64,000 nt of DNA from an uncultured Desulfobacteraceae bacterium (GCA_964626455.1 CAZVFQ010000004.1:5819-69818); one strand, 5' to 3'; shown: positions 15,101 through 20,598, counted from the first letter of the stretch. Program-made: numbers and translations. The notes: generated by a model from the sequence alone, not told the origin.

Positions 15101-15436
15101 ATGAAGAACAAAAGACGCAATAACGAAACATTCAGCCATATCGGCGAGGTGCTCTCTGAGGTAGTCCGGCAGGTCAGAAGGGAATCGGATTCCGAACTGG
15201 CCAGGATAAAAGAACTCTGGCGCCACGGACTTGATCCGATAATATCTGAAAACAGCCGGCCCGAAGCCCTTAAAAATGACATCCTTCTTGTAAATGTGGC
15301 AAGTTCCACAGTAATCCAGCACCTGCGTTTTCTTACTCCGCAAATCACACAACAGCTCAACAGGGCCCTTGGCGATGACAGAATAGGCCGGATACAGTAC
15401 AAAATCGGACCGGTCTCTTCCCGGAACAATAAATGA
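15101..15436 (+). CDS. DUF721 / DciA-like protein
   Basis: 111 aa: ...W...L...I...S.P..L....LLVNVASSTVIQHLRFLTPQITQQLNRALG...I..IQYKIG is the typical DUF721 pattern. Confidence 0.6.
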   Translation: MKNKRRNNETFSHIGEVLSEVVRQVRRESDSELARIKELWRHGLDPIISENSRPEALKNDILLVNVASSTVIQHLRFLTPQITQQLNRALGDDRIGRIQYKIGPVSSRNNK

Positions 15437-16158
15437 ACAGCCTGACGCACGACACATTTTTTAATGGAAAAATCTCAGTAAAACAGCCTGTAAACGGATA
15501 TCGTTTTTCCATCGATGCCGTGCTGCTCGGAAATCTTGCAGATATAAAACCCGGCGAGCGGGTTCTTGAACTGGGCACAGGATGCGGTGTTATTCCGCTT
15601 ATCCTTTGCTGCAGACATCCTGAGCTTTGTGCTGTCTTTGGTGCGGAAATCCAGCAGGAACTGGCGCAAATCGCGGCAGACAATGCAGCAGAGAACAAGA
15701 TGGATAACAAGATCACCATTCTGCACAAGGATATAAAAAAAATCAGCCCCTCAGATACCAACGGCCACGTGGAAGCCGTGATATGCAATCCCCCGCATTT
15801 TACTGAAAAATCAGGGCGGATAAATCCGGACTCCCAGCGGGCCGTGGCCCGCCATGAAATAGCCATGACCCTTTCTGATCTTACATCTGCTGCATCCAGG
15901 ATGCTTGCGCCCGGAGGAAGACTGATGGTTATATATCCATGTGAACGACTTGCCGATCTGCTCGCAGCAATGCGGCAAACCGGCATTGAGCCCAAAAAAC
16001 TGAGAATGATCCATCCAGCACCGCAAACCCCCGCCCAAAAGGTACTCGCATACGGCTTCAAGGGTAAAAATCCCGGCCTCAGGATTGCCCCCCCTCTTTA
16101 CATCCGTTCAGATCCGGAAAACTACTCCAAAGAAGTCAATGCCATGTTTAAGCAGTAA
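15433..16158 (+). CDS. tRNA1(Val) (adenine37-N6)-methyltransferase-like SAM methyltransferase
   Basis: GYRFSIDAVLL, VLELGTGCGVI (SAM motif I), ICNPPHF (NPPY-type motif IV). A 4-nt ATGA overlap with the upstream gene. Confidence 0.7.
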   Translation: MNSLTHDTFFNGKISVKQPVNGYRFSIDAVLLGNLADIKPGERVLELGTGCGVIPLILCCRHPELCAVFGAEIQQELAQIAADNAAENKMDNKITILHKDIKKISPSDTNGHVEAVICNPPHFTEKSGRINPDSQRAVARHEIAMTLSDLTSAASRMLAPGGRLMVIYPCERLADLLAAMRQTGIEPKKLRMIHPAPQTPAQKVLAYGFKGKNPGLRIAPPLYIRSDPENYSKEVNAMFKQ

Positions 16159-16270: not shown

Positions 16271-16361
<91 letters not shown>

Positions 16362-16505
16362 ACTAAATTATAAAATCCAATAGATATGCTAAATATCGGC
16401 TACATGACATCATTAGTGATACCATAAAAATATCTATAAATTACAAAGAGGCCAGGCGAAAATCCCAGCGTTCAAACCTTTCTTGAAACCGGATAAAATC
16501 AAGCT

Positions 16506-16889
16506 GTGAAATGCAAAATTGATATAACATCGGCTACTGATGTAGCTGCTTGGGTTACCAGGAAGGCATTTTATGAAAACGTGGACGAATGGGATCTTGG
16601 TCTGCGGGAGGCGAAAACAATCCTCGACAGGTACCATTCAGATTGGTTTCGGGATAGTACCGATGGCTTGCGTTTTACGCCCCCAGCTTTCGTGTTTAGG
16701 GACGGATTCTTAATGGGTATCAATGGGCGTCATCGAGCGATACTGCTTTTTAGACATATGAAGGCTATCCCAATGTTGCTTGCTATCCCTGAGATCTGGC
16801 CAAAGGAAAAATTTGCGGAAATCGCCTTAAAGCGAATCGAAGAGGATGGGGTTGTGGAACTCCCTGACCTTCCAATCCAATTGTTTTAA
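16506..16889 (+). CDS. Hypothetical protein, possible ParB/sulfiredoxin-fold (ParBc-like) domain
   Basis: 127 aa with a GTG start. FTPPAFVFRDGFLMGINGRHRAILLF..IPML resembles the ParB-like DG-x-HR-x-x-A core. Low-GC gene. Confidence 0.4.
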   Translation: MKCKIDITSATDVAAWVTRKAFYENVDEWDLGLREAKTILDRYHSDWFRDSTDGLRFTPPAFVFRDGFLMGINGRHRAILLFRHMKAIPMLLAIPEIWPKEKFAEIALKRIEEDGVVELPDLPIQLF

Positions 16890-17157
16890 GTGGTGGTCAT
16901 CACCATCCTTTGGTTTCATGTGAGGGTGTCCATCGAAAAAATAAACTAACAAACTGAATTTAAACAATTTACAAAGTCAGATTTTCTAAAATGCCCCCGA
17001 AAATACCCCCGAATTTTTTTACTGGGTACGGTCTCATTCGATTATTAATAACTATTTGTAGAGGCATCCAGGAGAAAATATGGATTTTGCCTCACGCAAA
17101 CCCTGTTCTAAGCTTGGTTTAAAGCCTGATTAATCATCTTATCATTCTTGGCAGTTA

Positions 17158-18675
17158 TTATATCAAAATAAACTTCATCTGCTGCTCTAATGTTGGTCGG
17201 TCAAGAATTCCAGTTGTATTAAATACATTGAGATCAAAAACACCTGCTTTTGAAAATTTGGACCAATTTTCAGCTAAATATTTCAAGTTCCCTGCAGTAA
17301 TAATAGCAACGTCAGTATCTGAATCATTTTTATACCGCAAGCTCCGCGCTTGCTGTTCTGCCCCTGGGCCAATTTCGGGAACGACCACGAGGAAAACATT
17401 CACTCGCTTTTTGGAATTACGAATATACTTTAAGAATTGATCAGCATGGCTTTTGGGAAATCTATATTCTTTTTCTTTACCCTTGTTATCCCATAAAAGC
17501 AGTTCTTCGTTTTTAAATGAGACTGCTCCATCGGCATGCTCGGTTCCGTCCATATCAAGCAGTTTACACCCCAGTTTTTTCTCGAACAAATATCGGGTGC
17601 CTTCCTCAAAATAGCCCTCTATATCCCTGTCTCGATCGATTAGGTTCGCTTGGCGCAGTTCTTTGTAATTGCGCTCAGCAAGCTCTTCTAAGTATTGGTA
17701 ATATAATTCCCTGGAGTCTTTGGTCTCTATTGGGGGTTTAGCCTTCAAAGTCGCGAAGTATTCTATTATATTATTGATGCGTTGCTCTTTGCTTCCACTA
17801 ACAGCCACTCCTTGCAGTTTTTTGCATATTTGATAAAGTTCGTCATTGGAAAGCGCCCCTAAAATTTCACTCGGTTTACATTGGGATTCAATAAGTCTTT
17901 CTGAGACCTCCTTTTTAGGGCCTGATACTGGAAGTCCCTGTTGACGGGCGGCAATACGAAGTTGATCGGCACTCAAAGTATCCTGAAGAGATTCTTGTGC
18001 AGATCTCCGCATTTCAAAACCAATGATTCGGCCTACCTTATTGGAAATTTCTTCGGGCAAGGCGATCAAGGGATTGGGCTCGGCGCGGTTGCAATAAAAT
18101 AGGATTCCCCGCTTCTGCAATTCTAACTGGGCGCTTTTGATTTCTTCATATGTATGAAGTTCATTATTCCTTTTGGGAAACATGCATAGCCGGCTTTCAA
18201 GCATATAATGTTCAAATCGACTTATGTTAAGTTTTTGGCGAAGTTTTTCTAGGAGCGCAAATTCTTCTTCCGAAATATCTTCATCCTCTAAAGCCACGCT
18301 TAGAATTGTCTGGTAAATATCAATTGATCGGCTATCAGAAAAAACAAACGCATTGCTCTCTTTTGCCTTGTCAATAACCCATTGCTCCTGATTCTGAACA
18401 CATTGATAAAGATCGTTTTCTGGAGCGGCGAGGTCTGGCCTTTCCATTAAAGAAACCAATATATAGCGGGTTAGCGTGCGGTTTGCCCGGCTCATGTTTG
18501 CAAAATCGAGCGCATCACGAATTCTTTCTTGATTTTCTAGGTAATCAATATTCTGTTCAATTTGCTCTTTAAGTTGCTCCTCATTGCCTTTTGGAATATT
18601 CTCCTTGAATATGCTGTCCACCACTCGGCTTAAATATTGTTTTGTCATGTTTGGCAGACAATCCAAGATCTTCAT
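17158..18675 (-). CDS. SAP-SAP-FokI-like (PD-(D/E)xK) nuclease with an uncharacterised N-terminal domain
   Basis: Start at the ATG at 18675, preceded by GGGAGGG. Two SAP motifs (LSADQLRIAARQQGLPVSGPKKEVSERL; LSNDELYQICKKLQGVAVSGSKEQRINNI). The C-terminus ADGAV...LLLWDNKGKEKEYRFP..HADQFLKYI is colinear with the FokI cleavage domain. Confidence 0.6.
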   Translation of the reverse strand: MKILDCLPNMTKQYLSRVVDSIFKENIPKGNEEQLKEQIEQNIDYLENQERIRDALDFANMSRANRTLTRYILVSLMERPDLAAPENDLYQCVQNQEQWVIDKAKESNAFVFSDSRSIDIYQTILSVALEDEDISEEEFALLEKLRQKLNISRFEHYMLESRLCMFPKRNNELHTYEEIKSAQLELQKRGILFYCNRAEPNPLIALPEEISNKVGRIIGFEMRRSAQESLQDTLSADQLRIAARQQGLPVSGPKKEVSERLIESQCKPSEILGALSNDELYQICKKLQGVAVSGSKEQRINNIIEYFATLKAKPPIETKDSRELYYQYLEELAERNYKELRQANLIDRDRDIEGYFEEGTRYLFEKKLGCKLLDMDGTEHADGAVSFKNEELLLWDNKGKEKEYRFPKSHADQFLKYIRNSKKRVNVFLVVVPEIGPGAEQQARSLRYKNDSDTDVAIITAGNLKYLAENWSKFSKAGVFDLNVFNTTGILDRPTLEQQMKFILI

Positions 18676-18887
18676 TGCCTTACCCTCCCGGTTAGTGTTG
18701 AGGCTTGTGATTGGTGGTTTCATGGTATAAAATCTTTATTTTTATATCATATAAACTATCTGCCATAAGATTTCAAATAATTGTTTCGAGAGTATTTTCT
18801 TTGACGATAACAACTTTCAGTTTTGGGCTTACTCTATATAACCAAAGCAACAGTAAACCACCTGGATCACCGAACCATAAACAAATC

Positions 18888-20327
18888 GAGTAGGGGGGTT
18901 CCTTGCGGTTCCCCCCTCTCACACCACCGGGCATACCTGCTCGGTACCACGGCGGTTTCCGTTTGATCTTAACTCCAAATACCTTCCGGTCAGGTTGATG
19001 AGTCCCTGCTTGTCAAACCACTCTTTTGACATGGCATCATTTGCCTGAGGGCTCCCGGCCCTGCGCCACCAGCCCTTGCCGGACAACGCCATTAGCCAGG
19101 AACGCCACTCCGGGATTCCGCAGCCCATTAAAAATTTAGCGACTCTTACTCTCCGTTTACACTGCTTGAGACGCACGCAACGCAATTTCCGCCGCACCCA
19201 TCCGTCGAGTGCTTCCAGCTTCCCGCGGCATTGCGCCAGGCGGTAGTACATGACCCAACCCGAGAGAAATTCATTAAGTTCCTTTATCCGCTTCTCAAAT
19301 GATACGGCACGATTTCTCCGGGTAATTGCACGGACTCGATCCTTGACCCGCTCCAGGCTCTGCGGCGCTATTAACAACCGCCCGCCGCTGTGGAGACGGT
19401 ATCCAAGGAACTTACGTTCCGATACATGCGCTACCGCGCTCTTCTTGCGATTTACACGCAAACGAAGCCGCTTTTCCAGGTACTGCGTGATTGACTCCAT
19501 GACCCGCCTGCCCGCAGCCTCAGACCGCACATAAATGTTGCAGTCATCGGCATACCGGCAAAAGCAATGACCCCGTTTCTCTAGTTCCTTGTCCAGATCG
19601 TCGAGCAGGATGTTGGCCAGTAACGGCGATAAGGGACCGCCCTGGGGTGTCCCTTCGTAACGCTCGATGCATACTCCGTTGACCATTATTCCCGATTCAA
19701 GAAATCGGCGAATGATCCGCAGCAAACGCTTATCCCTGACTCGACGCGCCAGCCTGGACATCAGCACATCGTGGTTTACCCGGTCAAAAAACTTCTCCAG
19801 GTCGCAATCCACCACGATGCTACGCCCTTCAGCCACATGCCGGCTTGCCTGCTCAAGTGCATCATGGGCACTTCTGCCCGGTCTGAACCCAAAACTGGAC
19901 TCCGAGAACGTGGGATCAATAAGGGGGTTTAAGACTTGCAGGATCGCCTGCTGAACCAGCCGATCAACCACCGTCTATGACCTCTGCTGACTTCTCCGTG
20001 TCCCTCCCGATGCATCACTGCAGCGGTAGCCGGGATCGTCCCGGCAGACACAGAGACCTCCCAGGGTAAGACGTGACACTTTACCCCGGTCCTCGCCGGA
20101 TTTACCAACGCGCGCGTCAGGGTGATTATCGGGCATCCCCGTCCAATGCCGGGTTACCCCGCCGCGCCGGCCTTGTATCCGATTCCTGTTCGTCGAGTCC
20201 GGGTTTTGCCTCCGGCTTCCTTCAGACCCCGCCTCGCGACGACGCCCTTGCCATTGGCTAACGGTTCCGATTACCACGGCCCGTAGAGGACTCTCACCTC
20301 ATAAGTTCCACGCCATGGCTGGCACAC
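18888..20327 (-). mobile_element. Group II intron remnant (class C-like insertion context), internally deleted; 3' boundary uncertain
   Basis: The minus strand starts GTGTGCCAGCC (5' GUGYG) directly after a terminator U-tract. About 354 nt of GC-rich non-coding sequence follow, then an RT/maturase ORF that lacks its N-terminus. Confidence 0.65.
18919..19971 (-). pseudogene. Group II intron reverse transcriptase/maturase, N-terminally truncated (RT blocks 0-1 missing)
   Basis: Begins (T)VVDRLVQQAILQVL (RT block 2), then FGFRPGRSAHDA, DLEKFFD, GTPQGGPLSPLLANI, RYADDCNI and the X domain LNEFLSGWVMYYR. An in-frame TAG at 19975-19977 closes the frame. Confidence 0.8.
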
Positions 20328-20357
20328 AAAAAGAAAGGGAAAAAATGATTTTTTCCC
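20328..20357 (-). terminator. Rho-independent terminator of the pgsA/tRNA-Gly/tRNA-Cys unit
   Basis: Minus strand reads GGGAAAAAA-TCA-TTTTTTCCC followed by TTTCTTTTT. Confidence 0.65.
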
Positions 20358-20436: not shown

Positions 20437-20511
20437 TGGAGGCGGCACCCGGATTCGAACCGGGGAATAAAGGCTTTGCAGGCCTCTGCCTTACCACTTG
20501 GCTATGCCGCC
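20437..20511 (-). tRNA. tRNA-Cys (anticodon GCA), CCA encoded
   Basis: Reverse complement GGCGGCATAGCCAAGTGGTAAGGCAGAGGCCTGCAAAGCC...GGTTCGAATCCGGGTGCCGCCTCCA. Anticodon loop CTGCAAA. Confidence 0.9.
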
Positions 20512-20523
20512 CAAAAATAAAAA

Positions 20524-20598
<75 letters not shown>

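Follow-up and report, generated by a model that had tools for sequence, protein, structure and literature searches.

What does a FokI-type nuclease do where its gene stands without an adjacent cognate methyltransferase? This question is raised by a gene in a 64,000-nucleotide (nt) stretch of DNA from an uncultured Desulfobacteraceae bacterium (GCA_964626455.1, CAZVFQ010000004.1:5819-69818), the whole of which is called the window here. In the 505-residue product, two SAP motifs precede a C-terminal FokI-type PD-(D/E)xK cleavage domain whose Asp-Asp-Lys centre is intact. These are preceded by an N-terminal domain, proposed from its sequence properties to be a conserved regulatory or sensor domain, whose fold has no relatives in the PDB. 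We describe the protein as a stand-alone restriction-type nuclease and a candidate defence gene product. It combines known domain types with one novel domain, in an architecture that is unreported in the searchable literature.

The open reading frame (ORF) starts with the ATG at 18675 and stops at 17160-17158, as read from the sequence; the coordinates of this and all other features are given in Table 1. An alternative in-frame ATG at 18723 would give a product of 521 residues. The homologs begin with MKI.DC and are about 505 residues long, which indicates that 18675 is the correct start and that 18723 is not used. An earlier description of this locus, made by a model from the DNA alone (the sequence-only reading), had placed the ORF on the minus strand with the same start, a ribosome-binding site and 505 codons for amino acids, all of which was borne out, and every sequence segment that it quoted was found in the window protein. 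The product is 100% identical to a database entry at NCBI (P0001), 'MAG: hypothetical protein ACOC03_01275 [Desulfosalsimonas sp.]'. A collection of 5.8 billion proteins yielded 110 full-length homologs with identities of 31-74%, so the ORF is a real conserved gene and not a chance one. The members of the family number in the hundreds, and every one carries a 'hypothetical' annotation. Its three modules always occur together, in a fixed order, and this division into modules, already made in the sequence-only reading, is backed by Pfam, by a FokI profile alignment, by an AlphaFold model and by Foldseek. Scans of the protein against NCBIfam and PHROGs gave no significant match, and no entry of the viral structure library BFVD matched its model below E 0.03.

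The C-terminal region was identified by profile match, by fold and by catalytic triad, the marks of the FokI cleavage-domain family, all of which were found. In the window protein, the Pfam model FokI_cleav_dom (PF09254) covers residues 354-424 with 22.6 bits and E 8e-5 (gathering cut-off 25). We scanned 33 diverse family members individually with Pfam, and 25 of the 33 matched this model, with a best E of 6.5e-9. Precomputed PF09254 matches are also recorded on most of the 110 homologs. The family profile was aligned by hhalign with the FokI cleavage domain, for which we used what we take to be the standard module of zinc-finger and TALE nucleases. This alignment had an E of 3.9e-4 and paired ADG with PDG, WDNK with VDTK, and VFLVVV with FLFVSG, reproducing an alignment that had been drawn by eye in the sequence-only reading. 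It also superposed D382, D396 and K398 on D450, D467 and K469 of FokI. Sequence identity to FokI was about 16-22%.

The structural comparison gave the same result. An AlphaFold2 (AF2) model of the full-length protein, built on the family alignment, had a predicted local distance difference test score (pLDDT) of 91.2 and a predicted template modelling score (pTM) of 0.82. When it was searched against the PDB with Foldseek, the best matches were to FokI (2fok/1fok, E 5e-6, probability 1.00) and the second to the FokI-type nickase Nt.BspD6I (E 3.5e-5 to 1e-3). All other folds, including other PD-(D/E)xK enzymes, had E>0.28. Pfam, profile alignment and Foldseek therefore all found the FokI match of the C-terminal region, and the assignment that had been made by eye is correct. 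FokI was not reached by sequence in searches of PDB chains: a single-sequence search with the protein gave no match, and a family-profile search gave only marginal SAP matches. A protein search with the profile of the nuclease domain returned fragments of the same family and no other architectures.

The cleavage domain is the best-conserved region of the protein, with a mean pairwise identity of 52%. The catalytic residues D382, D396 and K398 are invariant in the 33 homologs and also in the divergent archaeal and variant-architecture forms. Across the family alignment, the invariant positions are E357, T360, D382-G383, W395-D396-x-K398, H410, Q413, F414 and Y417, the last four of which lie in one helix. 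FokI cuts as a dimer formed through helices alpha4 and alpha5, and its alpha4 interface bears D483 and R487. Residue 416 (R/K) of the window protein faces R487 in the hhalign alignment and, by analogy with alpha4, the helix that contains it is a putative dimer interface. Taken alone, the identity of the C-terminal region as a nuclease is held with high confidence.

The tandem SAP motifs named in the sequence-only reading were confirmed. In the window protein, SAP_new25 (PF18953) passed its cut-off of 26.3 with 29.4 bits over residues 278-317, and SAP (PF02037) came near to its cut-off of 23.9 with 23.2 bits over residues 233-263. Among the family members scanned, SAP matched 29 of 33 (best E 1.1e-10) and SAP_new25 matched 23 of 33. 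The matches of the family profile to PDB entries were to the SAP structures of Tho1, DEK and MKL1, and these were marginal (E 0.04-0.2). Motif 1 has an invariant G252, and conservation reaches at least 90% at its K254 and R260, as it does at G294 and K296 of motif 2. Together the two motifs are basic, with an isoelectric point (pI) of 8.7.

The N-terminal domain was modelled alone by AF2 with a pLDDT of 93.7 and a pTM of 0.89. A Foldseek search of this model against the PDB gave no match at E<1. The weaker matches were mostly to winged-helix proteins (Cdc6 WH, MarR, ArsR and CodY-C), all of them non-significant. We considered whether the domain could be a diverged form of the triple winged helix-turn-helix (wHTH) recognition domain of FokI, but FokI was absent from the top 50 Foldseek matches, and the idea was rejected. 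The domain is acidic (pI 4.9) and is colinear from bacteria to archaea, with a mean pairwise identity of 40%. An exhaustive profile search of 1.84 billion representative proteins found it in 577 clusters, essentially all of which have the architecture of about 505 residues or are fragments of it. The few variants carry an N-terminal extension of about 95 residues or a doubled SAP pair, and all of them retain the DG...(W/Y)D-x-K nuclease. A portable sensor joined to varied effectors was considered and rejected, as the domain was found only with SAP motifs and the same nuclease. Being acidic, colinear, conserved and never recombined with other effectors, the domain fits a regulator or sensor rather than a swappable DNA reader.

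The sequence-only reading had noted a faint likeness to TerB repeats in this domain. Its sequence pattern indicates one TerB/Tic110-type helical hairpin, and not a complete TerB domain, so the call holds for a single hairpin and fails for the whole domain. Of the 33 members, 10 matched TerB (PF05099) at E<=0.05, the best at E 4.2e-5; the window protein itself had no Pfam TerB match at E<=1. The hairpin region is even more acidic than the domain as a whole (pI 4.4). TerB domains have reportedly been proposed to bind metals or to sense membrane-associated stress. The same segment recurs as three tandem copies in proteins of about 330-350 residues (P0210, P0222 and P0223). These have an N-terminal wHTH (Crp/TrmB-like) followed by three TerB/Tic110/ENT-type hairpins, and they form an uncharacterised TerB-related repeat family. 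The tandem-repeat wHTH proteins pass the TerB gathering score, on profile positions of about 72-116 out of 118 only.

The family is rare, accessory and horizontally spread. When one genome was taken for each of 185,579 species, only 75 loci were found. The family as a whole is distributed patchily: it occurs in about 12 phyla of bacteria, in archaea and in a single virus of haloarchaea. The hosts include Desulfobacterota; Bacteroidota, notably Balneolaceae; Gemmatimonadota (Palauibacter); and halophilic or alkaliphilic Bacillaceae. They also include Actinomycetota, Myxococcota, Verrucomicrobiota/Lentisphaerota, Acidobacteriota, Chloroflexota, a metagenome-assembled genome (MAG) of Paceibacterota, and Thermoplasmata/Methanomassiliicoccales. 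In 53 of 55 loci the gene has a lower G+C content (GC) than its flanks, and the mean difference is -7.9 points (Wilcoxon p 1.6e-10). Decay was seen in at least 7 of the 75 genome copies, some of them in isolates (Desulfospira joergensenii, Lentibacillus halodurans and Oceanobacillus). Two are frameshifted (L030, the Desulfospira joergensenii isolate, and L064) and two are internally deleted (L023, and L063, which lacks residues 40-135 in frame). L072 has an insertion of about 1.6 kb, and only C-terminal remnants are left in L073 and L084. Distant relatives of 546 residues, with 22-25% identity and with ADGE...WLLWDNK kept, were found in one haloarchaeal virus and on one megaplasmid, and with them the family reaches into the Halobacteria and a virus genome. 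In the mobile-element collections, the family occurred in 1 of 50,697 phage genomes, in 1 of 72,556 plasmids and in none of the IMG/VR contigs.

Across the loci L014-L088 there was also a bias to organisms of saline, alkaline and sediment habitats (Desulfosalsimonas, Desulfohalobiaceae, Balneolaceae, Alkalibacillus, Virgibacillus, Oceanobacillus, Natribacillus, Salicibibacter, Palauibacter and haloarchaea). This bias may reflect a shared gene pool or a function linked to salt or ions.

The neighbourhoods of the gene were compared in 8 loci and then by clustering of about 62 loci, and no neighbour was conserved across phyla. No DNA methyltransferase was conserved next to the gene in these loci, nor was the gene ever found in a repair or replication operon. 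Some copies do lie among defence genes. In L031, the order is a type I restriction endonuclease, a 489-residue ORF, the nuclease, SIR2 and HerA. The nuclease adjoins IetS/IetA in L033 and has a SIR2-like neighbour in L019. The closest relative (74% identity, L089) is beside a decayed integrase, a caspase-like peptidase, a CAP12/PCTIR TIR protein and DUF4062, and the copy in L007 lies in an island with an integrase, a transfer-messenger RNA, PemK and NERD. These cases are clear ones but a minority of the loci, and any enrichment is modest. A consistent housekeeping context, which the sequence-only reading had named as a sign against an accessory nuclease, was not seen: along with the absence of a conserved neighbour, there were several copies in defence or integrase islands, the AT shift in nearly every locus, and the decayed copies.

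In one lineage (L001-L004), a giant protein of 2101 residues with an HTH and a double PIN (Pfam HTH_upst_double_PIN; L001:11741-18046) is encoded directly after the nuclease homolog, and it may be another conflict-system gene. An IS200-type Y1 transposase lies nearby, and the gene content of these loci differs between strains.

As had been supposed, no named defence system in PADLOC or in the searchable literature corresponds to the protein. The best matches in PADLOC-DB v2.0.0 were non-significant (Cas2b, E 0.0026 over 35 residues; GajB, 0.01; PDC-S48, 0.017). The searchable literature holds no description of a SAP-FokI, TerB-FokI or TerB-nuclease architecture or of a FokI-like defence effector, and none of a tandem SAP pair with a restriction-type nuclease in prokaryotes. 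In the defence literature that was searched, FokI is cited for its wHTH DNA-binding module only.

How could such a protein act? The basic SAP pair would tether the enzyme to double-stranded DNA, independently of sequence. The acidic N-terminal domain would hold the cleavage domain inactive until a trigger is met, in the way that the FokI recognition domain sequesters its nuclease. The trigger could be a ligand, an ion, a protein or a DNA feature associated with infection. Once it is met, two cleavage domains would pair through the alpha4-like helix and make a double-strand cut. The role would be defence against phages or plasmids, by restriction of the invader DNA or by an abortive response. 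We infer the defence role and the N-terminal gating, and the whole package of a self-contained accessory nuclease with SAP tethering, N-terminal autoinhibition, alpha4-like dimerisation and a single-gene role in phage or plasmid defence is given an even chance. A defensive or accessory role is suggested by the rarity of the family over about 12 phyla, the AT shift, the decayed copies, the tRNA-flanked islet in which the window copy lies, and the copies in defence islands. Shango, Bunzi and Dionysus, three validated defence systems, also contain TerB-type modules (bioRxiv 10.1101/2022.05.11.491447; 10.1101/2025.09.30.679545). Among the options listed in the sequence-only reading (a type IV-like enzyme, a gated single-gene defence nuclease, or a selfish nuclease), the data lean to the second, since an acidic N-terminal domain that is conserved and keeps its colinearity is unlike a swappable DNA reader. 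A narrower form is put forward tentatively, as a possibility that falls somewhat short of the package above: an unrecognised single-gene immune nuclease with a SAP-tethered, dimerising FokI module and an acidic sensor domain, which would respond to an infection cue. This cue is possibly ionic or membrane-linked, given the TerB-type element and a potassium channel gene that recurs as a neighbour (described below).

Several observations weigh against this proposal. The FokI_cleav_dom and SAP scores of the window protein are slightly below the Pfam gathering cut-offs. Defence genes were found within two genes of the nuclease in just about 5-8 of about 45-60 non-redundant loci, a count that was not set against a genome-wide background. 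Many copies lie amid ordinary metabolic genes. In Balneolaceae (beside mnmE) and in Palauibacter, the gene is syntenic across species, which indicates that it can be stably inherited, and this is less typical of fast-turnover defence genes. Analogy with FokI, along with patterns of charge and conservation, is moreover the basis on which N-terminal gating and pairing through the alpha4-like helix are proposed.

The same data can be read in other ways. If the N-terminal domain, possibly through a winged-helix-like part, read modified bases in phage DNA and licensed the FokI-type cut, the host DNA would be unmarked and no methyltransferase would be needed. Such a type IV enzyme would agree with a solitary nuclease that has no DNA methyltransferase conserved alongside and has neighbours from defence islands. 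A winged helix is found at the N terminus of type IV enzymes of the Mrr type, and the weak Foldseek matches of the N-terminal domain were mostly of this kind. However, these matches were all non-significant, no reader fold was matched structurally at E<1, and Pfam found no SRA, PUA/EVE/ASCH, DUF3427, McrB-N or Mrr_N reader in the window protein or in the 33 members, though a reader of a new type may be present. The pI of 4.9 is also unusual for a module that reads DNA, and we consider this explanation unlikely. A chromosomal nuclease for repair, recombination or structure-specific cleavage, serving niche housekeeping in saline and alkaline lineages, is more unlikely still. SAP motifs do occur in eukaryotic repair factors such as Ku70, Rad18 and SLX4; the N-terminal domain is conserved rather than hypervariable; many loci have no mobile or defence genes; and the cross-species synteny in Balneolaceae and Palauibacter would be expected of such a gene. 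But a housekeeping gene would hardly be restricted to 75 of about 185,000 species representatives scattered over distant phyla and archaea, be AT-shifted almost everywhere, be pseudogenised often (in isolates as well), and be missing from every repair or replication operon, and the window copy sits in an islet between tRNA genes.

A gene that serves itself or an element is improbable as well. It could be an addiction-like toxin with its antitoxin built in as the N-terminal domain, or a weapon of an integrative element or virus against competitors. The copies beside integrases, the distant homologs carried by a Natrinema megaplasmid and, in its accessory region, by Halorubrum virus Humcor1, the AT-shifted composition and a distribution like that left by horizontal gene transfer are in line with this, whereas the near-absence of the family from the mobile-element collections is not. 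Most copies are chromosomal without a recognisable element around them, and no antitoxin or immunity gene is linked conservedly to them. The cleavage domain is homologous to that of FokI, and full-length Foldseek alignments to FokI and Nt.BspD6I cover 400-540 columns, so a type IIS-like enzyme with a cognate methyltransferase gene at some other place in the genome has to be weighed too. This appears very doubtful indeed. Neither an adjacent cognate methyltransferase nor a sequence-specific recognition domain, as expected of type IIS restriction-modification (R-M), was found: the surveyed loci have no adjacent DNA methyltransferase, the one near the nuclease gene in the window is TrmN/PrmC-like, and the N-terminal domain alone does not retrieve the FokI triple-wHTH. 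Recognition domains of type IIS enzymes of differing specificity are typically divergent, but the N-terminal domain here is acidic and conserved family-wide.

The potassium channel leads to a further explanation. A Kv-type channel with six transmembrane segments (Pfam Ion_trans, TVGYGD filter, C-terminal CPHCG) is encoded no more than two genes away from the nuclease homolog in 5-6 of the roughly 62 loci. These belong to Bacteroidales, Lentisphaeria, Gemmatimonadota and two 'Rickettsiales' MAGs, at least four bacterial phyla in all, and the channel is likewise present in Halorubrum virus Humcor1. Among themselves, the nuclease-adjacent channels share 34-51% identity. In an optional two-gene system, the acidic TerB-like domain might sense ions that flow through the channel during infection and might then switch the nuclease on, and the recurrence of one channel subfamily beside the nuclease over at least four phyla and in Humcor1 would agree with this. 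In the reverse test, however, only 1 of the 125 metagenomic and viral loci anchored on the channel had a nuclease homolog, and the channel was therefore rejected as an obligate partner. Gene orientations are mixed and often convergent, and no such channel is present anywhere in the 64-kb window. As the channel is common cargo of viral contigs, shared residence in accessory islands is enough to account for the association, which at most includes an optional partnership; a channel-coupled nuclease is given a very small chance. The channel was seen on 45 IMG/VR viral contigs and may be a notable viral or accessory cargo in its own right.

Comparison with known systems places the window protein nearest to FokI, a type IIS enzyme (PDB 1FOK/2FOK; PF09254), with which it shares a homologous C-terminal cleavage domain in which the triad and the alpha4 helix are superposed. 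By analogy, non-specific cutting by dimers only is expected here. FokI differs in having a triple-wHTH recognition domain and a cognate methyltransferase, both of which the window protein lacks; instead it has two SAP motifs (presumed to bind DNA) and the acidic N-terminal domain of unassigned fold. Nt.BspD6I (N.BspD6I), the nickase that is the large subunit of a heterodimeric type IIS enzyme, has the same FokI-type catalytic domain but also a sequence-specific recognition domain, a small catalytic subunit and membership of an R-M system, none of which is seen for the window nuclease. The protein resembles Shedu SduA, Mrr and SauUSI as a solitary PD-(D/E)xK nuclease without a methyltransferase, found partly in defence islands and with an N-terminal domain that plausibly controls it. 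It differs from Shedu and the Mrr-type enzymes in matching no PADLOC model, in its FokI-type nuclease, in its extra SAP motifs and in an unrelated N-terminal fold. Shedu is described in a preprint (bioRxiv 10.1101/2023.08.10.552762).

With Shango SngA, Bunzi BnzA and Dionysus DinB, the protein shares a TerB-type helical hairpin with acidic conserved residues. Here, however, a single hairpin lies inside a larger domain that is fused directly to a nuclease, and the helicase/ATPase partners of Shango and the membrane partners of Bunzi and Dionysus have no counterparts at the window nuclease. What the TerB modules sense in these three systems is not understood (bioRxiv 10.1101/2022.05.11.491447; 10.1101/2025.09.30.679545). 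The SAP motifs have the helix-extended loop-helix form and the pattern of conserved G and K/R known from SAP-domain proteins of eukaryotes and viruses (Tho1, DEK, SAF-A, Ku70 and MKL1), although the profile matches to Tho1, DEK and MKL1 are marginal, as given above.

Zinc-finger and TALE nucleases rely on the FokI cleavage domain, which in nature is known, to our knowledge, almost solely from type IIS R-M enzymes. Here the catalytic module occurs in a fixed context outside R-M, with two SAP motifs, a conserved N-terminal domain and no methyltransferase. If the gene serves defence, it would be a new single-protein architecture in the prokaryotic immune repertoire, and a tractable case of how a cell can keep a non-specific nuclease harmless with no DNA modification. 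Should the N-terminal domain respond to a ligand or an ion, the protein would be a natural gated FokI-type nuclease. As an immune nuclease, it would be the first natural use of the FokI module outside R-M and would offer a compact, naturally gated FokI-like domain of possible use in genome-editing fusions. A lineage-specific repair nuclease would be of less interest, yet prokaryotic SAP motifs at work on DNA would still be notable. We rate the significance as moderate, because the function rests on inference and the signal from defence contexts is only moderate, though a FokI module outside R-M is notable.

Table 1. Positions of the nuclease gene, its parts and the other features discussed. 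Coordinates without a prefix are those of the window; prefixed ones are those of the locus named.
Feature	Coordinates	Strand	Basis or remark
Complete coding sequence of the 505-residue SAP-SAP-FokI-type nuclease, stop codon included	17158..18675	-	ORF list and sequence
Shine-Dalgarno sequence GGGAGGG	18683..18689	-	8 nt upstream of ATG 18675; read from the sequence
N-terminal domain, residues 1-222, all-helical with two short beta-hairpins	18010..18675	-	AF2 domain model
Single TerB/Tic110-type helical hairpin, residues ~114-163 (ILSVALEDEDISEEEFALLEKLRQKLNIS...)	18187..18336	-	Family scans, tandem-repeat relatives
SAP motif 1, residues ~230-264	17884..17988	-	Pfam SAP, family scans
SAP motif 2, residues ~274-317	17725..17856	-	Pfam SAP_new25
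FokI-type PD-(D/E)xK cleavage domain, residues 350-505	17161..17628	-	Pfam FokI_cleav_dom, Foldseek, hhalign
Catalytic triad codons D382 (17530-17532), D396 (17488-17490), K398 (17482-17484)	17482..17532	-	Alignments
Helix SHxxQFx(R/K)YIR, residues ~409-420	17416..17451	-	FokI alpha4 counterpart; H410, Q413, F414 and Y417 invariant
Low-GC accessory islet with the nuclease gene and a 127-residue ORF	16362..18884	.	GC profile, tRNAs, intron
127-residue ORF, convergent with the nuclease gene	16506-16889	+	Followed by a terminator-like hairpin
dciA (111 residues, PF05258) and TrmN-like methyltransferase pair	15101-16158	+	Directly upstream of tRNA-Ser
Group II intron between tRNA-Cys and the nuclease gene	about 18885-20330	-	Rfam, reverse transcriptase/maturase ORF
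Kv-type channel	L015:9124-9927	+	
Kv-type channel	L028:11604-12392	-	
Kv-type channel	L040:12804-13583	+	
Kv-type channel	L019:11521-12414	-	
Kv-type channel	L029:9187-9933	-	
Kv-type channel, Halorubrum virus Humcor1 MW344765.1	L094:6896-7726	-	
Distant relative HrrHm1_140, Halorubrum virus Humcor1	L094:4749-6389		Haloarchaeal tailed virus, accessory region
Distant relative WP_138247088.1, Natrinema versiforme pNVE500	L095:5524-7164		Megaplasmid, beside an integrase

The islet that holds the gene is 2.5 kb long and has a GC of 0.37-0.43, as against about 0.50 in its flanks. It is bounded by tRNA-Ser (16271-16361, +) on one side and by a group II intron, followed by tRNA-Cys/Gly (20437-20598, -), on the other. 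No convincing att-like repeats were found to bound it, and scans for promoters and terminators gave no excess over shuffled expectation. The flanking genes are housekeeping genes (adhE-like, dciA, a TrmN-like methyltransferase, pgsA, transaldolase, folK and argH). The methyltransferase (241 residues, 15433-16158) has an NPPHF motif and is TrmN/PrmC-like, and its start overlaps dciA by 4 nt (ATGA). We examined it as an R-M partner, about 1 kb away from the nuclease gene, and rejected it, as it is of the TrmN/PrmC type, translationally coupled to dciA and outside the islet.

The sequence-only reading had seen no DNA methyltransferase, specificity subunit or small immunity ORF in the islet. No R-M methyltransferase is indeed present, but the islet does carry a small conserved ORF, the one of 127 residues. 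This ORF has 36 homologs with 49-64% identity and represents a real conserved family. It had no match in Pfam, NCBIfam or PHROG; its motif GINGRHRA recalls ParB/Srx-type folds. Its homologs are found in an island with Xre-HTH, TIR, SEC-C and PglZ genes and beside a Fic gene. They never adjoin homologs of the nuclease, and the ORF was therefore rejected as an immunity or partner gene.

In the group II intron, Rfam identified D1-D4 clearly (19973-20243) and D5/D6 weakly (18885-18957, 26 bits against a gathering score of 40). The first ~72 positions of the TIGR04416 model are missing from its reverse transcriptase/maturase ORF (18919-19971). As far as the sequence tells, this intron is probably decayed or immobile.

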